From: Halothiobacillus sp.
Lineage (GTDB): Bacteria; Pseudomonadota; Gammaproteobacteria; JAAZVP01
Length of the DNA stretch: 64,000 bases
Assembly (NCBI GenBank): GCA_018623495.1
Contig: JAAZVP010000005.1
Coordinates: 1,218-65,217, forward strand
Direction: 5' to 3'
Shown here: positions 24,320 to 57,184 of the stretch, in pieces
Position numbering within the stretch: position 1 is the first letter of the stretch
How the letters are laid out: every line of letters begins with the position of its first letter
The notes under the pieces: generated by a model
Databases searched by the model: none
The model's input: only the letters and a program-made list of their open reading frames with translations
What the model was told of the DNA's origin: nothing
Program-made: the position numbers and the translations under genes

Positions 24320-24697
24320 ATGGCCGGAACCTACACCCTACGCGTACACACCGACTTCGCCGCGGCCCACCGGCTGCTCGGCTACCCCGGCAACTGCAAC
24401 CGCCTGCACGGCCACAACTGGAAGGTCGAGGTGGAGGTCGCCGGCGAGCAGCTGGACGAGGTGGGCATGGTGGTGGACTTCAAGACCATCAAGCGCGCCG
24501 CCGGGACGGTGGCCGATCGGCTGGACCATGCCTATCTCAACGAGGTCCCGCCGTTCGACACCATCAATCCCACGGCCGAGAACATCGCGCGCTACTTCTT
24601 CCAGGAGTTGGGCGCGATCCTCGACGACGACCGGGCCCGGGTGCGAGCCGTGACCATCTGGGAGACCGACCGCGCCTGCGTCCGCTATACCGAGTGA
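24320..24697 (+). CDS. queD: 6-carboxy-5,6,7,8-tetrahydropterin synthase
   Basis: 125 aa in the PTPS family with CxxxHGH-type residues (NRLHGHNW). Confidence 0.85.
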   Translation: MAGTYTLRVHTDFAAAHRLLGYPGNCNRLHGHNWKVEVEVAGEQLDEVGMVVDFKTIKRAAGTVADRLDHAYLNEVPPFDTINPTAENIARYFFQELGAILDDDRARVRAVTIWETDRACVRYTE

Positions 24698-24706
24698 GGC
24701 CCGCCA

Positions 24707-25497
24707 TGCCAGAGCAGACCTGTTCCATCCCGGACATCCAGTCCACCGAGGACGCCCGCCGCATCGCCATCGACCGGGTGGGGATCAAGGACATCCGCCA
24801 CCCCGTCTACGTCCGCGACGCCCACGGCAACCGCCATCCCAGCGTGGCCCGCGTGAGCATGTACGTGAACCTGCCCCACGACCGCAAGGGCACGCACATG
24901 TCGCGCTTCGTGGCGATGCTCAACGAGGGCGAGGTGGAGGCCTCCATCCCCGCCTTCCACACCCTGCTCGAGACCATGACCGAGCGCCTCGAGGCCGACC
25001 GCGGCTACGTCGAGATGGCCTTCACCTACTTCATGGAGAAGGCCGCGCCGGTCTCGGGCCAGGCCAGCCTGATGGACTACGACGTCACCCTGGTGGGCGA
25101 GTCCGGCCCCGAGGACACCGAGGTCCGCCTGCGCCTGACCGTGCCGGTGACCAGCCTCTGCCCCTGCTCCAAGGAGATCTCCGAGTACGGCGCCCACAAC
25201 CAGCGCTCCCACATCCGCCTGGACGCGGTGGTGGACGACAGCGTGAGCATCGAGGGGTTGATCCACACCCTGGAGGCCGAGGGCTCCTGCGAGCTCTACG
25301 GGCTGCTCAAGCGGCCCGACGAGAAGCACATCACCGAGAAGGCCTACGAGAACCCCAAGTTCGTCGAGGACATGATCCGCGACGTGGCCGTGGCCCTGGA
25401 CCGCGAGAGTGGCCTGCGCGCCTACACCGTGGAGACCGAGAACTTCGAGTCCATCCACAACCACTCGGCCTACGCCTGCATCCGCCGCGAGGCGTAG
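24707..25497 (+). CDS. folE2: GTP cyclohydrolase FolE2 (type IB, MptA family)
   Basis: 263 aa from ATG 24707 (MPEQTCSIPDIQS...). Carries the conserved SLCPCSKEISEYGAHNQRS motif of GTP cyclohydrolase IB. The track's long upstream extension was rejected. Confidence 0.85.
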
Positions 25498-25555
25498 GCG
25501 AACCCCGCCCCCCGCGCCCCGCCGGGCCGCGGGATCGCGCCCCCGGACACGAAAA

Positions 25556-25588
25556 GGCCCGGCACCCTCGGGTGCCGGGCCTTTTTCC
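25556..25588. terminator. bidirectional rho-independent terminator (folE2 / bamC convergent)
   Basis: The stem ggcccggcaccc-tcg-ggtgccgggcc is flanked by AAAA on the left and TTTTT on the right, so it can terminate both strands. Confidence 0.7.
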
Positions 25589-25590
25589 GG

Positions 25591-25818
25591 TTCATCGCCC
25601 TTTGGCGTGGCATCCCTCGTCAGGACGCCGCAGAGGGCAATGTCTCTCGCCAGGGCGCCGGGGTGTCCGGATCGAAGGGGACTTCCTGTTGGCTCAGCGA
25701 TGGAAAGTGCGCTCGCGCACCCGGCAACCCCCGTAGGGGAAGGACAACGGCCCCGAAGGGGCGCGAAATCCCTGTCACGTCGCACATGCCTCCTGTTTCA
25801 CGGCAAAGTGCCGGTGAA
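25591..25818 (-). repeat. copy A of a ~230-bp non-coding repeat element (MITE-like / structured RNA candidate); minus strand matches copy B
   Basis: Its reverse complement aligns end-to-end at ~80% identity with 46526..46757. It has imperfect terminal inverted repeats (ttcaccggcactttgccgtg ... cacgccaaagggcgatgaa) and starts 3 nt after the terminator U-tract. No coding frame is conserved between the copies. Confidence 0.65.
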
Positions 25819-25853
25819 CCCTCTTGCTGCCCGACCCGCCGGGCGCGCCGCGG

Positions 25854-45986: not shown

Positions 45987-46466
45987 ATGCAAGTTGAAGA
46001 CAATTGTTGCGTCGCCATCGACTACACGGTGAAGGACGACGAAGGCACCGTGGTCGACACCTCCGAGGGCCGCGACCCGCTGGTCTATCTCCACGGCCAC
46101 AACAACATCGTCCCCGGCCTGGAGAAGGCCCTGGTGGGCAAGTCCGAGGGTGACGAGCTGGAAGTCAAGGTGGAGCCCGGCGAGGGCTATGGCGAGCGCG
46201 TCGAGGAACTGGTCCAGGACGTTCCCCGGGAGATGTTCCAGGGCGTCGACGACATCCAGCCCGGCATGCAGTTCCAGGCCCAGACTGCCAACGGCCCGCA
46301 GATCGTCACCGTCTCCGAGGTGGGCGACGAATCGGTCAAGGTCGACGGCAACCACCCCATGGCCGGCAAGACCCTGCACTTCGACGTCAAGGTCGCCAAC
46401 ATCCGCGAGGCCACCGAGGAAGAGATCGAGCACGGCCACGCCCACGAGATGGCCAGCAACGAATAG
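45987..46466 (+). CDS. slyD: FKBP-type peptidyl-prolyl cis-trans isomerase SlyD
   Basis: An FKBP/IF domain is followed by a His/Asp/Glu-rich metal-binding tail (EEEIEHGHAHEMASNE). Confidence 0.9.
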   Translation: MQVEDNCCVAIDYTVKDDEGTVVDTSEGRDPLVYLHGHNNIVPGLEKALVGKSEGDELEVKVEPGEGYGERVEELVQDVPREMFQGVDDIQPGMQFQAQTANGPQIVTVSEVGDESVKVDGNHPMAGKTLHFDVKVANIREATEEEIEHGHAHEMASNE

Positions 46467-46492
46467 GCTCGCTGTCATCGGCGATTCACGAA

Positions 46493-46522
46493 CCCGTGCC
46501 AGGATCGGCACGGGTTTTTTTA
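46493..46522 (+). terminator. rho-independent terminator of slyD
   Basis: The stem cccgtgcc-aggatc-ggcacggg is followed by TTTTTTTA. Confidence 0.75.
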
Positions 46523-46525
46523 TGT

Positions 46526-46757
46526 TTCTTCGCATGTTGCCGTGAAACAGGAGGCATACAAGCGACGTGACAGGGATTTCGCGCACCGTTTCGGGCCGAT
46601 GTTCTTCCTCTCCGTTTGTTGCCGGGTGCGCGAGGCCCTCTCTATATGCTTGCCCAGTGGAATCCCCCTTCGATCCGGGCACCCCGGCGCCTTGGCGAGA
46701 AGCATCGACCCCTGCTGCGTCCTGGTGAGGGGTGTCACGCGAAAGTGCGAAGAACGC
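46526..46757 (+). mobile_element. copy B of ~230-bp repeat element, flanked by perfect 8-bp direct repeat TTTTATGT (MITE-like insertion)
   Basis: The direct repeat ttttatgt sits at 46518..46525 and 46758..46765. The element has terminal inverted repeats (ttcttcgcat ... gtgcgaagaa) and is ~80% identical to the reverse complement of 25591..25818. It is inserted between the slyD terminator U-tract and the MFS start codon. Confidence 0.7.
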
Positions 46758-46761
46758 TTTT

Positions 46762-47991
46762 ATGTCCGAGAGCACCATGAGCGAAGCCACCGGACTGCGT
46801 GACTACTTCCTGGTCACGGGCAACTACTGGACCTTCACCGTCACCGACGGCGCCATCCGCATGCTGGTGGTGCTGTTCTTCCACCAGCTGGGCTACACCC
46901 CGCTGGAAATCGCCCTGCTGTTTCTCTTCTACGAGTTCTTCGGCGTGGTCACCAACATGGTGGGCGGCTGGCTGGGGGCGCGCATCGGCCTCAACCGCAC
47001 CATGCAGCTGGGCACCGGCCTGCAGATCGTCGCCCTGCTGCTGCTCACCGTGCCCGAGCCCTGGCTGTCGGTGGGCTACGTGATGTTCGCCCAGGCGCTC
47101 TCCGGGATCGCCAAGGACCTCAACAAGATGAGCGCCAAGAGCAGCGTCAAGGCGCTGGTGGCCGACGAGGACTCGCGGCTGTTCAAGTGGGTGGCCGTGC
47201 TCACCGGCTCCAAGAACGCGCTCAAGGGGGCCGGCTTCTTCGTCGGCGGGCTGCTGCTGGCGGTGGTGGGCTTTCGCTGGGCGCTGGTCATCCTGGCCGG
47301 TGCCCTGGCCGTCGCCCTGGTGGTCACCCTGCTCCTGCTGCCGACGGGGATGGGACGCTCGAAGGCCCGGCCACGGTTCAACCAGGTGTTTTCCAACACC
47401 CGCGAGATCAACTGGCTTTCCGCCGCCCGCTTCTTCCTGTTCGGTGCCCGCGACATCTGGTTCGTGGTCGCCCTGCCGGTCTTTCTCTACTCCCTGGGCT
47501 GGGACTTCTGGCAGGTGGGGGCCTTCCTCGCCCTCTGGGTGATCGGCTACGGCATCGTCCAGGCGGGCGCGCCGCGCTTTCTGAAAAACCCCCGCTCCCC
47601 GCGCGGGCCGGACGGGACCACCGCCCGCCTCTGGACCTTCGCCCTCGCCGCCATCCCCGCGGGCATCGCGCTGGGCATGATGGCGGGGCTGGATCCGGCG
47701 TGGGTGGTGGTCGCCGGGCTGGCGGTGTTCGGCGTGGTCTTCGCCATCAACTCCAGCGTCCACTCCTACCTGATCCTGGCCTACTCCGACCACGACAAGG
47801 TCGCCCTCAACGTGGGCTTCTACTACATGTCCAACGCCGGCGGTCGACTGGTGGGCACGGTGCTCTCGGGCTGGGTGTTCCAGGAATACGGCCTGGTGGG
47901 CTGCCTGTGGGGCTCGACGCTCTTCGTCCTCGCCGCGGGACTGCTTTCCCTCCCCCTGCCCGGGTCACGCCGGGCCGTGACACCGGCCTGA
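46762..47991 (+). CDS. MFS transporter (possible ArsJ-like organoarsenical efflux permease)
   Basis: 12-TM MFS protein. The ATG at 46762 lies inside the target-site duplication; the alternative ATG is at 46777. The ArsJ assignment rests on remembered family motifs (TDGAIRMLV, AKDLNKMSAKS), not on a search. Confidence 0.7.
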   Translation: MSESTMSEATGLRDYFLVTGNYWTFTVTDGAIRMLVVLFFHQLGYTPLEIALLFLFYEFFGVVTNMVGGWLGARIGLNRTMQLGTGLQIVALLLLTVPEPWLSVGYVMFAQALSGIAKDLNKMSAKSSVKALVADEDSRLFKWVAVLTGSKNALKGAGFFVGGLLLAVVGFRWALVILAGALAVALVVTLLLLPTGMGRSKARPRFNQVFSNTREINWLSAARFFLFGARDIWFVVALPVFLYSLGWDFWQVGAFLALWVIGYGIVQAGAPRFLKNPRSPRGPDGTTARLWTFALAAIPAGIALGMMAGLDPAWVVVAGLAVFGVVFAINSSVHSYLILAYSDHDKVALNVGFYYMSNAGGRLVGTVLSGWVFQEYGLVGCLWGSTLFVLAAGLLSLPLPGSRRAVTPA

Positions 47992-48107: not shown

Positions 48108-49067
48108 TCAGGCGGAGACCCGCAACAGGTGGACCCCGAACAGCCCGCGGGAGTCGGTCCAGAAGCCGTCCGGCTCGAAACCGGCCGCCCCGGCCAGCGA
48201 CTCGAACTCCGCGGGCGTGTACTTGTAGGAGTTCTCGGTGTGGATGGTCTCGCCGGGGGCGAACGCGAAGGCCCGGTGGCCCAGCCGGATGGCCTGCGGC
48301 GAGCGGGCCTCCAGGTGCATCTCCACCCGCCCGGCGTCGCGGTTGTAGAAGGCACGGTGGGCGAAACCCATCGTTTCGATCTCGGCGTCCAGTTCCCGCC
48401 GCATCCGCTCCAGCAGGTTGCGGTTGAAGGCCGCCGTGAGCCCGCGGGCGTCGTTGTAGGCGGCATCCAGGATGGCGGGATCCTTCTTGCGGTCCACGCC
48501 GATCAGCAGCCGGCCGCCCGTCCCCAGCTCGCCGGCGATCCGTGACAGCAGGGCCCGGGCCTCGACGGGCTCGAAGTTGCCGATGCTCGAACCGGGAAAG
48601 AAGGCCAGCCGGCCTTGCCCCCGGGCCTCGGGCAGGTGAAAGGGCCGGGTGAAGTCGGCGCACAGCGCGTGCACCTCCAGCCAGGGATGGTCCACGGCCA
48701 GCCGGCGGGTGGAATCGAGGAGGAAGTCGCCGGAGATGTCCAGCCCCGTGTAGCTGGCCGGTTGCAGGGCATCGAGCAGGATGCGGATCTTGCGGCTGGC
48801 CCCGCTGCCGAACTCCACCAGCCGGCAGTCGGTGCCGCAGTGCGCGGCGATCTCGCCGGCGTGGCGCTCGAGGATGGCGGTCTCGGTGCGGGTGGGATAG
48901 TACTCGGGCTGGCGGCAGATGGCGTCGAAGAGTTCCGACCCCCGCCGATCGTAGAAGAACTTGGGCGGGATGGCCCTGGGCTCGCGCGCCAGTCCCTCCT
49001 CGACGGCCTCGCCCAGCGAGGCGTCGGCCACCGCCACCGAGTGGACCTTCACTGCCGGTTCGCTCAT
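48108..49067 (-). CDS. egtD: L-histidine N-alpha-methyltransferase (ergothioneine biosynthesis)
   Basis: 319 aa with EgtD motifs (EFGSGASRKIR, HTENSYKY). Confidence 0.85.
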   Translation of the reverse strand: MSEPAVKVHSVAVADASLGEAVEEGLAREPRAIPPKFFYDRRGSELFDAICRQPEYYPTRTETAILERHAGEIAAHCGTDCRLVEFGSGASRKIRILLDALQPASYTGLDISGDFLLDSTRRLAVDHPWLEVHALCADFTRPFHLPEARGQGRLAFFPGSSIGNFEPVEARALLSRIAGELGTGGRLLIGVDRKKDPAILDAAYNDARGLTAAFNRNLLERMRRELDAEIETMGFAHRAFYNRDAGRVEMHLEARSPQAIRLGHRAFAFAPGETIHTENSYKYTPAEFESLAGAAGFEPDGFWTDSRGLFGVHLLRVSA

Positions 49068-50335
49068 CGGTCCTCCGCCAGCCGGATGCCGGCGAACTGC
49101 CAGCGCTCATGGGGGTAGAAGAAGTTGCGGTAGGTGGCCCGGATGTGGGACTCGGGGGTGGCGCAGGAACCGCCACGCAGCACCATCTGGCCGGACATGA
49201 ACTTGCCGTTGTACTCGCCGATGGCCCCCTCCGCCGGCCGGTAGCCCGGGTAGGCGGTGTAGGGGCTGGCGGTCCACTCCCAGACATCGCCGAAGAGCTG
49301 CACCAGCCCGTCGCCGGCGGCGACGGCCGGTTGCAGGTAGCGGCTCTCGACGAAGTTGCCCGCGACGGGGCGCGAGCCCGCGGCGTGCTCCCACTCGGCC
49401 TCGGTGGGCAGGCGTGCGCCGGCCCAGCTGGCGTAGGCATCCGCCTCGAAATGGCTCACGTGGCAGACCGGCGCACCGGGATCGAGCTCGCGCAGGCCCG
49501 CCAGCGTCATCTGGAACCAGCGCCCGTCGTGCTCCTCCCAGTAGAGCGGCGCCCGCCAGCCCTCCCGGCAGACGGCGGCCCAGCCGTCCGAGAGCCAGAA
49601 CTCGGGCCGCTGGTAGCCGCCGTCCCGCACGAACTCGAGGTACTCGGCATTGGTCACCGGCCGGCTGGCGAGGGCGAAGTCCTGGAGAAAGACCCGGTGG
49701 CGCGGGCCCTCGTTGTCGTAGGCGAACCCCTCGCCGGCGTGGCCGATCTCGACCACGCCCCCCTCGAACTCGCACCGGGTCATCGCCGGTGCCTCCCGCC
49801 TCGGCGGCGCCGGCAGCTGGCAGTAGGCGGGGCGCATGGGGTTCTGGCCGAAGATGTGCTTGATGTCGGTACAGAGCAGCTCCTGGTGCTGCTGCTCGTG
49901 GTTGAGGCCCAGCTCCACCCGCTCGGCCACGGCGGGCCAGTCGGCGTCGCGGCAATCGAGGATCAGCCATTCCATGGCCTGGTCGACGTGCAGGCGATAG
50001 TCGAAGATCTCGCGCACCGTCGGCCGCGCCAGCAACCCGCGGCGGGGCCGGGGATAGGGCGTGCCGTGGGTGACGTAATAGGAGTTGAACAGGTAGTCGA
50101 AATCGGGATGGAACGGCCGGTGGCCCGGCTGGAAGCGCCCCAGGAGGAAGGTCTCGTAGAACCAGGTGACGTGTGCCAGGTGCCACTTGGGCGGGCTCAC
50201 CGAGGGCATGGTCTGGATGACGTAGTCCTCCACCTCCAGCGGTCGGCAGAGGTTCTCGCTCGCCCTGCGCACGCGGCGATAGCGATCGAGCAGGGCCTCG
50301 CGGCCGCTCTCGGCCGCCTTCATCACGGGCTGCAT
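49064..50335 (-). CDS. egtB: ergothioneine biosynthesis sulfoxide synthase EgtB (DinB-like + FGE-sulfatase domains)
   Basis: 423 aa with an N-terminal DinB_2-like domain bearing iron-binding His residues and a C-terminal FGE-like domain (WEWT). It overlaps the egtD start by 4 nt. Confidence 0.85.
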   Translation of the reverse strand: MQPVMKAAESGREALLDRYRRVRRASENLCRPLEVEDYVIQTMPSVSPPKWHLAHVTWFYETFLLGRFQPGHRPFHPDFDYLFNSYYVTHGTPYPRPRRGLLARPTVREIFDYRLHVDQAMEWLILDCRDADWPAVAERVELGLNHEQQHQELLCTDIKHIFGQNPMRPAYCQLPAPPRREAPAMTRCEFEGGVVEIGHAGEGFAYDNEGPRHRVFLQDFALASRPVTNAEYLEFVRDGGYQRPEFWLSDGWAAVCREGWRAPLYWEEHDGRWFQMTLAGLRELDPGAPVCHVSHFEADAYASWAGARLPTEAEWEHAAGSRPVAGNFVESRYLQPAVAAGDGLVQLFGDVWEWTASPYTAYPGYRPAEGAIGEYNGKFMSGQMVLRGGSCATPESHIRATYRNFFYPHERWQFAGIRLAEDR

Positions 50336-56176: not shown

Positions 56177-57184
56177 ATGACCGTCAAGATCGGCATCAAC
56201 GGCTTCGGCCGCATGGGCCGCCTGGGCTTCCGGGCCGGCTGGGACCATCCCGCCTTCGACGTCATCCACGTCAACGAGACCAGCGGGGACGCGGCCACCG
56301 CCGCCCACCTGCTGGAGTTCGACTCGGTCCACGGCCGCTGGCCGCGGATGATCGAGGCGGACAGCGCGGGCTTCTCCGTCGAGGGCCGCCACGTGGGCTT
56401 CTCGAGCTTTGCCACGCCCGCGGAGATCCCCTGGGCGGAACGGGGCGTGGAGATCGTGGTGGAGGCCTCCGGCGCCTTCGTCACCCCCGCGACCCTGGCC
56501 GGCCACTTCGAGCGCGGCGCGCGCAAGGTGGTGGTGGCCGCACCGGTCAGGGAAGACGCGCTCAACATCGTCATGGGGGTCAACGACCACCTCTACGACC
56601 CGGCGCGCCACGACCTGGTCACCGCTGCCTCCTGCACCACCAACTGCCTGGCACCGGTGGTGGCGGCCCTCAAGGACACCGTGGGCATCGAGCGGGGCAC
56701 CATGACCACGCTGCACGACGTCACCAACACCCAGCGCATCGTCGACAAGCCCCACAAGGACCTGCGCCGGGCCCGCTCGGCCAGCGAGTCGCTGATCCCC
56801 ACCACCACCGGCTCGGCGCGGGCCATCGGCAGGATCTTCCCCGAGCTCGACGGCCGGCTGAACGGCCTGGCCGTCCGGGTGCCGCTGCAGAACGCCTCGC
56901 TCACCGACTTCGTCTTCCAGGCCCCGCGGCCGGTGACCGCCGAGGCGGTCAACGCCCACCTGCGCGCGGCGGCCGAGGGGCCGCTCGCCGGCATCCTGGG
57001 CTTCGAGACCCGGCCGCTGGTCTCGGTGGACTACCGCGACGACCCCCGCTCGGGGATCGTGGACGCCCCCTCCACCATGATCATCGACGACCGGCTGGTG
57101 AAGGTGCTGGCCTGGTACGACAACGAGTGGGGCTATGCCAACCGGCTGATGGAGCTCACGGCCAAGGTGGCGCAAGCCCTCTGA
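56177..57184 (+). CDS. glyceraldehyde-3-phosphate dehydrogenase, divergent ArsJ-associated type
   Basis: 335 aa with [10 protein letters not shown] and the catalytic SCTTNCLAP. It is a divergent GAPDH inside the ars cluster. Confidence 0.8.

Follow-up and report, generated by a model that had tools for sequence, protein, structure and literature searches.

What is the sequence that separates slyD (45987–46466) from arsJ, and how did arsJ come to lie behind it? A preliminary description of this DNA took it for a MITE-type insertion, a claim supported by our analysis of the window (the whole stretch of DNA analysed, 64 kb): the unit, called copy B here, is small and non-coding, has inverted ends, is flanked by a perfect 8-bp repeat and belongs to a family of at least three copies. 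The best-supported reading, and in our judgement a fairly probable one, is that copy B is a lineage-restricted, MITE-like, non-autonomous and probably mobile element. The features discussed are collected in Table 1.

Table 1. Features of the slyD–arsJ and bamC loci, in window coordinates.
Feature	Position	Strand	Remark
slyD intrinsic terminator hairpin	46490–46517	+	11-pair stem, then TTTTTTTATGTTT
Left direct repeat TTTTATGT	46518–46525	.	Presumed target-site duplication; the terminator tail ends in it
Copy B, ~230-bp MITE-like repeat	46526–46757	+	Similarity to copy A spans 46524–46755 (nhmmer, E 4e-79)
Copy B left terminal inverted repeat TTCTTCGCATGTTGCCGTGAAAC	46526–46548	+	
Copy B right terminal inverted repeat GTGTCACGCGAAAGTGCGAAGAA	46732–46754	+	
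Right direct repeat TTTTATGT	46758–46765	.	Includes ATG 46762, probably not the ArsJ start
arsJ, organoarsenical efflux MFS transporter	46777–47991	+	NCBIfam MFS_ArsJ, 604 bits against a cutoff of 400
Bidirectional hairpin terminator (AAAAAGGCCCGGCACCC-GAG-GGGTGCCGGGCCTTTT)	25552–25586	.	Between bamC/copy A and a convergent folE2-type gene; partly detected
Copy A 3' flank GAAAAAGG	25580–25587	-	After 2 nt CG; A-tract arm of the next terminator
Copy A	25590–25819	-	34 nt past the bamC stop, co-oriented with bamC
Copy A 5' flank GCAAGAGG	25820–25827	-	Candidate decayed target-site duplication

At least three copies of the repeat lie within ~66 kb. Over ~230 nt, copies A and B share 81% identity, with uninterrupted matches of 21 and 23 nt in their alignment; a third, copy C, follows nlpD, presumably ahead of rpoS, ~1 kb outside the window (L029, 7817–7887; E 9e-15), and the three differ from each other by 15–22%, a divergence that gives no sign of recent activity. 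The terminal inverted repeats described earlier are real: the arms of copy B are 23 nt long and 78% complementary, those of copy A (25589–25606 and 25803–25820) 18 nt and 72%, and the gapped arm scores, significant in both full copies, exceed those of 20,000 shuffles (P ≤ 5e-5). All five visible ends carry a common terminal inverted repeat of ~24 nt with the consensus GTTCWTCGCAYTTTGCCGTGAAAC; their alignment starts at GTTC, runs inward with 13 columns invariant, and gives way to divergence outside. A dispersed repeat might also spread without transposition, by duplication, gene conversion or recombination of intergenic modules, an explanation to which we give a minor share of the probability; the sharp stop of similarity at significant inverted ends, seen at all five termini, speaks against it, as it resembles a transposase substrate and not a segmental duplication.

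The octamer reported on both sides of copy B is likewise there, bracketing the element (approximately 46526–46755). TTTTATGT occurs at these two places and at no other site on either strand of the 64-kb window; shuffled windows average 0.05 matches, and none among 100 has two or more. Across the window, exact 8-mers are repeated 236–244 nt apart at 56 of 573,768 positions, and when only the two 20-nt flanks are shuffled, with an offset of 0–4 nt allowed at each element end, an exact 8-mer repeat has a P of 4e-4. The left octamer directly adjoins the left end of copy B (TTCTTCGCA, from 46526), while 2 nt, GC (46756–46757), lie between the right end (TGCGAAGAAC, up to 46755) and the right octamer. 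If the repeat had spread without transposition, the tail of the slyD terminator and the AT-rich stretch before arsJ would share TTTTATGT by coincidence. The 2 nt at the right end and the imperfect flanks of copy A agree with this, and a chance match is made more likely by the position of both halves, at which T-runs would be expected in any case. Once TTTT is granted on either side, ATGT alone has to match by chance, at ~0.006 per alignment or register, so that even with the T-runs assumed to be functionally required the coincidence is unlikely, if conceivable, and the flank-shuffle P value tells against it too. We infer that the octamer is the product of target duplication and not of chance.

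When the 2-nt offset of copy B is applied, the flanks of copy A, GCAAGAGG and GAAAAAGG, agree at 6 of 8 positions, a further point against spread without transposition. That copy A is the older of the two, as had been suggested, is plausible; the 5/8 flank match given for it is not retained, its register being off by 1 nt. A 6/8 match fits the one to two changes expected in 16 nt from copies that differ by 15–22%. The 5' flank of copy C is GAAAAAGC. Every copy is intergenic and has an observed end adjoining a rare A/T run: the 64 kb contain just 28 runs of at least 5 nt, and the share of positions no more than 12 nt away from such a run is 1.25%. Their presence beside all three copies suggests target choice, which again disfavours a repeat dispersed by duplication or recombination.

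In composition the element has a GC content of 61–65% (61% in copy B) against 70% for the window. It is non-coding, with A/B substitutions falling 11/11/7 by codon phase and indels of 2, 1 and 1 nt. An open reading frame of 52–53 codons follows a perfect AGGAGG in copies A and B, and a small protein or type I toxin gene was considered on this account; we rejected it, as 1-nt indels that differ among A, B and C break the frame, codon periodicity is absent, and such frames are expected at 65% GC. Prokaryotic MITEs are shorter than 500 bp, have inverted ends of 4–30 bp and flanking repeats that fade with age, are AT-richer than their host and favour AT-rich intergenic targets (PMC10969869 section 2.1; PMC3184786). 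The repeat, at ~230 bp, falls below the limit of ~500 bp and has neither a transposase nor conserved coding sequence; its inverted repeats stand at the exact ends of the unit, it is AT-richer than the host, and its insertions lie in AT-rich intergenic DNA. These features fit the published description and are counted for the MITE reading.

At the locus itself, the slyD terminator hairpin is intact together with its T7 tail (46515–46521), which extends into the left octamer, and termination of slyD should therefore be unaffected. The preliminary description had the element landing on the start codon of the transporter gene, the ATG of the right octamer; the likely ArsJ start is instead ATG 46777, 12 nt downstream of that octamer. 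An identical database protein (404 aa) begins here, this is also the aligned position of the start of the ArsJ orthologue in the nearest relative (L001), and the number of residues before the conserved LR.Y..TGNYW, which is 4–7 in most ArsJ homologues, comes to 6 from ATG 46777 and 11 from ATG 46762.

In L001 the order is slyD, a 187-nt spacer, gapdh and arsJ, with gapdh in the place of copy B and the element absent. We did not find the predicted empty site (...gggtttttttatgtccgag...): in the nearest relative, gapdh lies between slyD and arsJ; the exact empty-site junction expected for copy B is GGGTTTTTTTATGTCCGAGAGC. Nor has the insertion simply separated arsJ from a promoter on the slyD side, as had been supposed: since L001 carries gapdh there and the gene is missing here, gapdh had already disappeared from the locus together with its promoter region. 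arsJ is now 240 bp farther from the slyD terminator, behind sequence able to form a long hairpin. As a separate observation, arsJ stands here without its usual gapdh partner. Two other histories were discarded, namely a gapdh remnant beneath copy B, which has no similarity to the L001 gapdh, and an inversion by way of copies A and B, which lie in opposite orientations, ruled out because the adjacency of slyD and arsJ is ancestral (L001).

Copy A has a comparable setting. At its matching site in L006–L008 the element is absent and another gene follows bamC by 16–39 nt. The matching loci in L001 and L006–L008 differ in gene content as well, and the relatives without the element have 70–84% protein identity. 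Both full copies lie at synteny break-points, which would also fit repeats that took part in rearrangements or remained after them, in favour of a spread without transposition. The only other assemblies of the source organism represent the same strain, with 1 mismatch over 15 kb.

The setting of the copies raises a further alternative, namely that they are paralogous structured RNAs (small RNAs or 3'/5' UTR elements) whose transcription accompanies or follows that of the upstream gene; the inverted ends would then form a closing helix, and the octamer would be a coincidence of two U-rich tails. All three copies are oriented like the gene upstream, bamC (A), slyD (B) and nlpD (C); downstream lie a strong terminator (A) and arsJ (B), with CGCUUUUAU after the closing helix of copy B. 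One closing-helix pair is T-A in B and A-T in A, covariation is seen in a small hairpin of A (CATGT/ACAGG) and C (CCGAT/ATCGG), and the 21- and 23-nt identical blocks also count in its favour. We nevertheless consider this improbable. In B the A/C hairpin is disrupted, and its prediction is inconsistent; compensatory pairs number 2 of 54 (RNAalifold). The single-sequence fold has a z of only -1.4 on the element strand, and the A/B structure conservation index is 0.63, as against 0.63 for column shuffles (z -0.8; on the opposite strand z -1.5, p ~0.08). There are 0 Rfam matches, both at gathering scores over the whole window and in E-value mode around B. Conserved structure, covariation or a curated match was thus not found, at the low power of 2–3 sequences, and neither was a promoter and terminator of the element's own or a constant position beside a regulated gene. 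A promoter scan detected no sigma-70-like promoter in or around copies A and B, upstream or inside; for the idea that the element supplies a promoter there is no consensus match, and TTGCCG-N18-TATATG (46612–46641) is present in copy B only and fails the scan criteria. The absence of the element from relatives at 70–84% protein identity also weighs against a conserved RNA.

Transcripts of MITEs form stable hairpins and are a source of small RNAs (PMC10969869 section 4.1), so that the structured-RNA and MITE readings may both be true. There is a slim chance that the repeat has gained a function at the RNA level, as a module for transcript ends or read-through or as a MITE-derived small-RNA family; this would explain the co-orientation with the upstream gene and the location beside terminators in all three copies. 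If so, the element might, at the slyD–arsJ site, drive or gate an arsJ left without its gapdh partner and without a promoter region of its own.

How far does the family reach, and what might have moved it? No homologue with two independent sequence blocks was found in 185,579 species genomes (the source genome is not among them), where the searches returned 0 matches and then 20 chance ones within coding sequence. JGI metagenomes yielded no homologue, only two chance matches at the starts of prepilin-type genes; a sensitive blastn search of plasmids gave none, viral contigs gave seed-length matches only, and a concatenated six-frame protein query had no match among 5.8 billion proteins. Within the window there is no transposase gene, no full-length IS with these ends and no further end, and the plasmid and viral collections contained no transposase for it either, a result that favours the view of a repeat spread by means other than transposition. 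The several IS families that had been named as making 8-bp duplications cannot be narrowed to one: with no transposase or further ends in the window, none is assignable. Independent Logan contigs from two samples both end at window position 46589, inside copy B, and another ends inside copy C, which weakly favours the MITE reading and might be taken as proof of a high copy number; the latter was downgraded, for a contig also breaks inside arsJ, at 47107, outside the repeats, and such break-points therefore prove little.

On the MITE-like reading that we favour, a transposase encoded elsewhere would bind both inverted ends, staggered cuts 8 bp apart would be made in an A/T-rich target, the element would be joined to the cut ends, and repair of the gaps would duplicate the target. 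For copy B this target would have been TTTTATGT, where the U-tail of the slyD terminator ends and ~12 nt before the start codon of arsJ.

No general open question hinges on copy B. Its value lies first in annotation, where it accounts for a puzzling 240-bp spacer and leads to a corrected ArsJ start codon, and the loss of gapdh beside arsJ bears on whether ArsJ still functions in arsenate resistance. A repeat family of this kind can fragment assemblies of an uncultured gammaproteobacterium of 70% GC. Should the family prove abundant, its targeting of A/T runs (terminator tails) would be another case of mobile repeats finding safe sites in a very GC-rich genome.

Target duplications of 8 bp are made by IS1, IS6, IS66, IS256, ISL3 and IS1595, several of which would be compatible with an A/T-rich target duplicated over 8 bp; the consensus end GTTCWTCGCAYTTTGCCGTGAAAC could be assigned to none of them. 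REP/BIME sequences were discarded as a comparison, being often clustered, GC-rich palindromes of 20–40 nt that lack inverted ends and target duplication, where the repeat here is single, ~230 nt long and has inverted ends. Neither ERIC nor Correia has sequence similarity to it; Correia elements are flanked by TA and carry promoters and IHF sites, and neither promoters nor IHF sites were detected in our repeat. Both are shorter, ERIC at ~127 bp and Correia at 104–157 bp, and the ERIC-type flank is TA, in place of 8 bp here (PMC3184786). They resemble it as old, diverged intergenic repeats with inverted ends (ERIC in Enterobacteriaceae, Correia in Neisseria; PMC3184786, Table 1) that are usually co-transcribed with their neighbours, near terminators and often variable in position between relatives (PMC3184786).

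The closest likeness is to bacterial MITEs such as MITEAba12 of Acinetobacter and the IS-derived ones of Pseudomonas (PMC6382973, PMC3184786, PMC10969869). The repeat differs from them in that MITEAba12 has the parent ISAba12 and no parent IS is known for it, in the 15–22% divergence of its copies, and in that it is seen in three copies (~66 kb) in one uncultured gammaproteobacterial lineage only. The same, however, are the length below 500 bp and the lack of a transposase, the imperfect terminal inverted repeats, the direct repeat that flanks one copy or more, the potential for a long hairpin, the AT-richness relative to the host and the insertion into AT-rich intergenic sequence. A MITE-like repeat is an ordinary kind of element.

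The 8-bp direct repeat bracketing copy B, a ~230-bp repeat between slyD and arsJ, was confirmed at both positions noted in the preliminary description: TTTTATGT occurs at 46518-46525 and 46758-46765, and has no other match on either strand of the 64-kb window. The left octamer directly adjoins the left end of copy B (46526), while the right one lies 2 nt (GC) past 46755, the last base common to copy B and the second full copy, copy A. Dinucleotide shuffles gave a mean of 0.05 octamer matches, with two matches in 0/100. For a window of 70% GC, with both octamers in intergenic T-rich DNA, this null is too lenient, and stricter ones were therefore added. With only the two 20-nt flanks shuffled, and the repeat allowed 0-4 nt from the element end, an exact 8-mer repeat has P = 4e-4; window-wide, an exact 8-mer recurs at 236-244 nt spacing at ~1e-4 of positions. 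A chance octamer is thus unlikely. The reading in which copy B is a dispersed repeat flanked by the octamer by chance is rather improbable overall; if the T-runs are granted, terminator tails being functional, ATGT alone needs a chance match, at ~0.006 per register.

The repeat is a family with sharply defined ends. Copies A and B share 81% identity across ~230 nt, and a third, copy C, lies outside the window, ~1 kb left of position 1, in the spacer 3′ of nlpD on an independent assembly contig (L029) that ends inside the element, so that its first 70 nt are available. In gammaproteobacteria, rpoS is usually the next gene after nlpD. When the five visible termini (three left ends, plus the right ends of A and B as reverse complements) are aligned from GTTC inward, 13 columns are invariant, with consensus GTTCWTCGCAYTTTGCCGTGAAAC, and nothing is shared outside the aligned ends; the left end of copy B starts TTTC, not GTTC. 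The inverted ends are 78% complementary over 23 nt in copy B and 72% over 18 ungapped nt in copy A, and gapped inverted-end scores for both full copies have P <= 5e-5 against 20,000 shuffles. Two Logan contigs from different sequencing runs end at the identical base 46589 in copy B; together with the end of L029 in copy C, this hints at graph branching from further near-identical copies. These are low-coverage assemblies, and the break-points are given little weight because a Logan contig also breaks inside arsJ (47107).

Features of the slyD-arsJ locus and copies of the repeat
Feature	Position	Strand	Adjoining A/T run	Remarks
slyD	45987-46466			
slyD intrinsic terminator hairpin	46490-46517			then T7; left octamer is the end of the tail
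Copy B	about 46526-46755		T7 tail of slyD terminator	
arsJ	46777-47991			the "MFS gene" of the preliminary description; ArsJ equivalog, 604 bits (cutoff 400)
Copy A	25819-25590	minus	A5 arm of bidirectional terminator	34 nt after bamC stop
Copy C	L029 7817-7887		GAAAAAG	94 nt after nlpD stop; nhmmer E 9e-15

The composition and placement of the copies also fit a MITE. The element has a GC content of 61% and 65%, against 70% in the host, and an A/T run adjoins an observed end of all three copies, although the 64 kb hold just 28 such runs of at least 5 nt, with 1.25% of positions within 12 nt of one. The flanks of copy A, GCAAGAGG and GAAAAAGG, are identical at 6/8 positions at the 2-nt offset of copy B. 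The copies diverge from one another by 15-22%, from which roughly 1-2 changes would be expected in 16 nt of duplication; 0 are observed in copy B and 2 in copy A.

A structured-RNA family, which would itself be compatible with a MITE origin, appears very unlikely. A closing RNA helix would have strands that differ between copies while staying complementary. Read pair by pair, the ends contain one compensatory pair, T-A in B and A-T in A; of the broken pairs, two are lost in A alone and two in B alone. This is the pattern of decaying inverted repeats and offers no argument for selection on pairing. Rfam gave no match, either over the whole window at gathering scores or around copy B in E-value mode. 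Single-sequence folding is unremarkable on the element strand (z about -1.4), and gives z of -0.2 (copy B) and +0.7 (copy A) on the opposite strand. RNAalifold on A and B predicts 54 pairs, of which 2/54 are compensatory; the structure conservation index, 0.63, equals the mean of 0.63 from 300 column-shuffled alignments in an RNAz-style control, with a consensus-energy z of -0.8, and the opposite strand reaches z -1.5 (p about 0.08). A small hairpin with apparent A/C covariation is broken in B and inconsistently predicted. No result thus favors structured RNA, in tests of two to three sequences with low power.

Coding potential is likewise lacking. Substitutions between A and B fall 11/11/7 by codon phase, without periodicity, and their indels are of 2, 1, and 1 nt. 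A perfect Shine-Dalgarno-like AGGAGG is common to A (25792-25787) and B (46555-46560), and is AGGGGG in C; in A and B a GTG 10-12 nt past it opens a 52-53-codon ORF, the frame of which is shifted by indels that vary among A, B, and C, arguing against a real gene.

At the arsJ locus, the closest comparison is the nearest-relative sequence, L001 (ArsJ 84% identical), which has the gene order of the window: wrbA-type flavodoxin, DUF2069, thioredoxin, galU, slyD, then arsJ, egtD, and egtB. The empty site predicted in the preliminary description is not present there: the repeat was not found in L001, which instead has a gene for a 335-aa GAPDH between slyD and arsJ, its stop overlapping the arsJ start. 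The gapdh partner of arsJ, together with its upstream region, has been lost from the window genome, with copy B occupying the shortened spacer, and the perfect flanking repeat suggests that copy B is a simple insertion after this loss. In the window arsJ stands alone, the usual gapdh-arsJ pair being kept in L001 (3469-5684) between slyD and egtD, and the sole gapdh (56177-57184), 9 kb away, shares 64% identity with the ars-type enzyme of L001. Convergent to arsJ, as in L001, are the ergothioneine genes egtD and egtB (48108-50335, minus); this thiol-antioxidant pathway and the adjacent arsenical exporter may be functionally paired. In this thinly sampled lineage, further assemblies of the organism, with 1 mismatch in 15 kb, belong to the same strain as the window, and no insertion polymorphism was seen among them.

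The insertion had been placed on the start codon of arsJ, at ATG 46762. The likely start is instead ATG 46777: an identical 404-aa database protein begins there, the L001 start aligns with it, and it leaves 6 residues before the conserved motif LR.Y..TGNYW, compared with 11 from ATG 46762 and 4-7 in most homologues where the motif was found. The insertion therefore falls within the ribosome-binding region, ~12 nt before this ATG. A promoter resembling the sigma-70 type was not detected within copy B or close to it.

At the copy A locus, bamC is followed within 16-39 nt by an MBL-fold gene and purC in relatives whose DapA is 70-72% identical, leaving no room for the element. The order after dapA-bamC (24320-25497) accordingly differs, with the MBL-fold hydrolase and purC in L006-L008 and, in the window, copy A, a strong bidirectional hairpin terminator, and then convergent queD and folE2-type genes. 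With gene order differing at both loci, both full copies stand at synteny break-points.

Searches for homologues used two independent conserved blocks of the element. The first had 0 matches in 185,579 species genomes; the second had 20, limited to the pattern and inside coding sequence of unrelated phyla. JGI metagenomes yielded no homologue and 2 chance matches at the starts of prepilin-type genes (L002 358-389, L003 2493-2524), where the pattern coincided with the ribosome-binding site and initial codons (MRRDRGFTLIELLVV...) for a protein with a prepilin-type N-terminal domain; these were rejected as homologues, having no further similarity. A six-frame protein query and sensitive blastn against plasmids gave no match, and viral contigs none past the seed. 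No parent IS emerged from these searches or from the window, which holds no further element ends, and the IS families suggested as a source are not supported.

The MITE proposal itself is largely borne out, by the inverted ends, the repeat family, the AT-rich element, the A/T-run sites, and the flanks. Copy B is probably a non-autonomous, MITE-like element, of an already known kind, whose insertion into the A/T-rich tail of the slyD terminator duplicated 8 bp. The properties of the element match published descriptions of prokaryotic MITEs, which are <500 bp and AT-rich, have inverted ends 4-30 bp long and flanking repeats that decay over time, and insert preferentially into AT-rich intergenic DNA (PMC10969869 section 2.1; PMC3184786).
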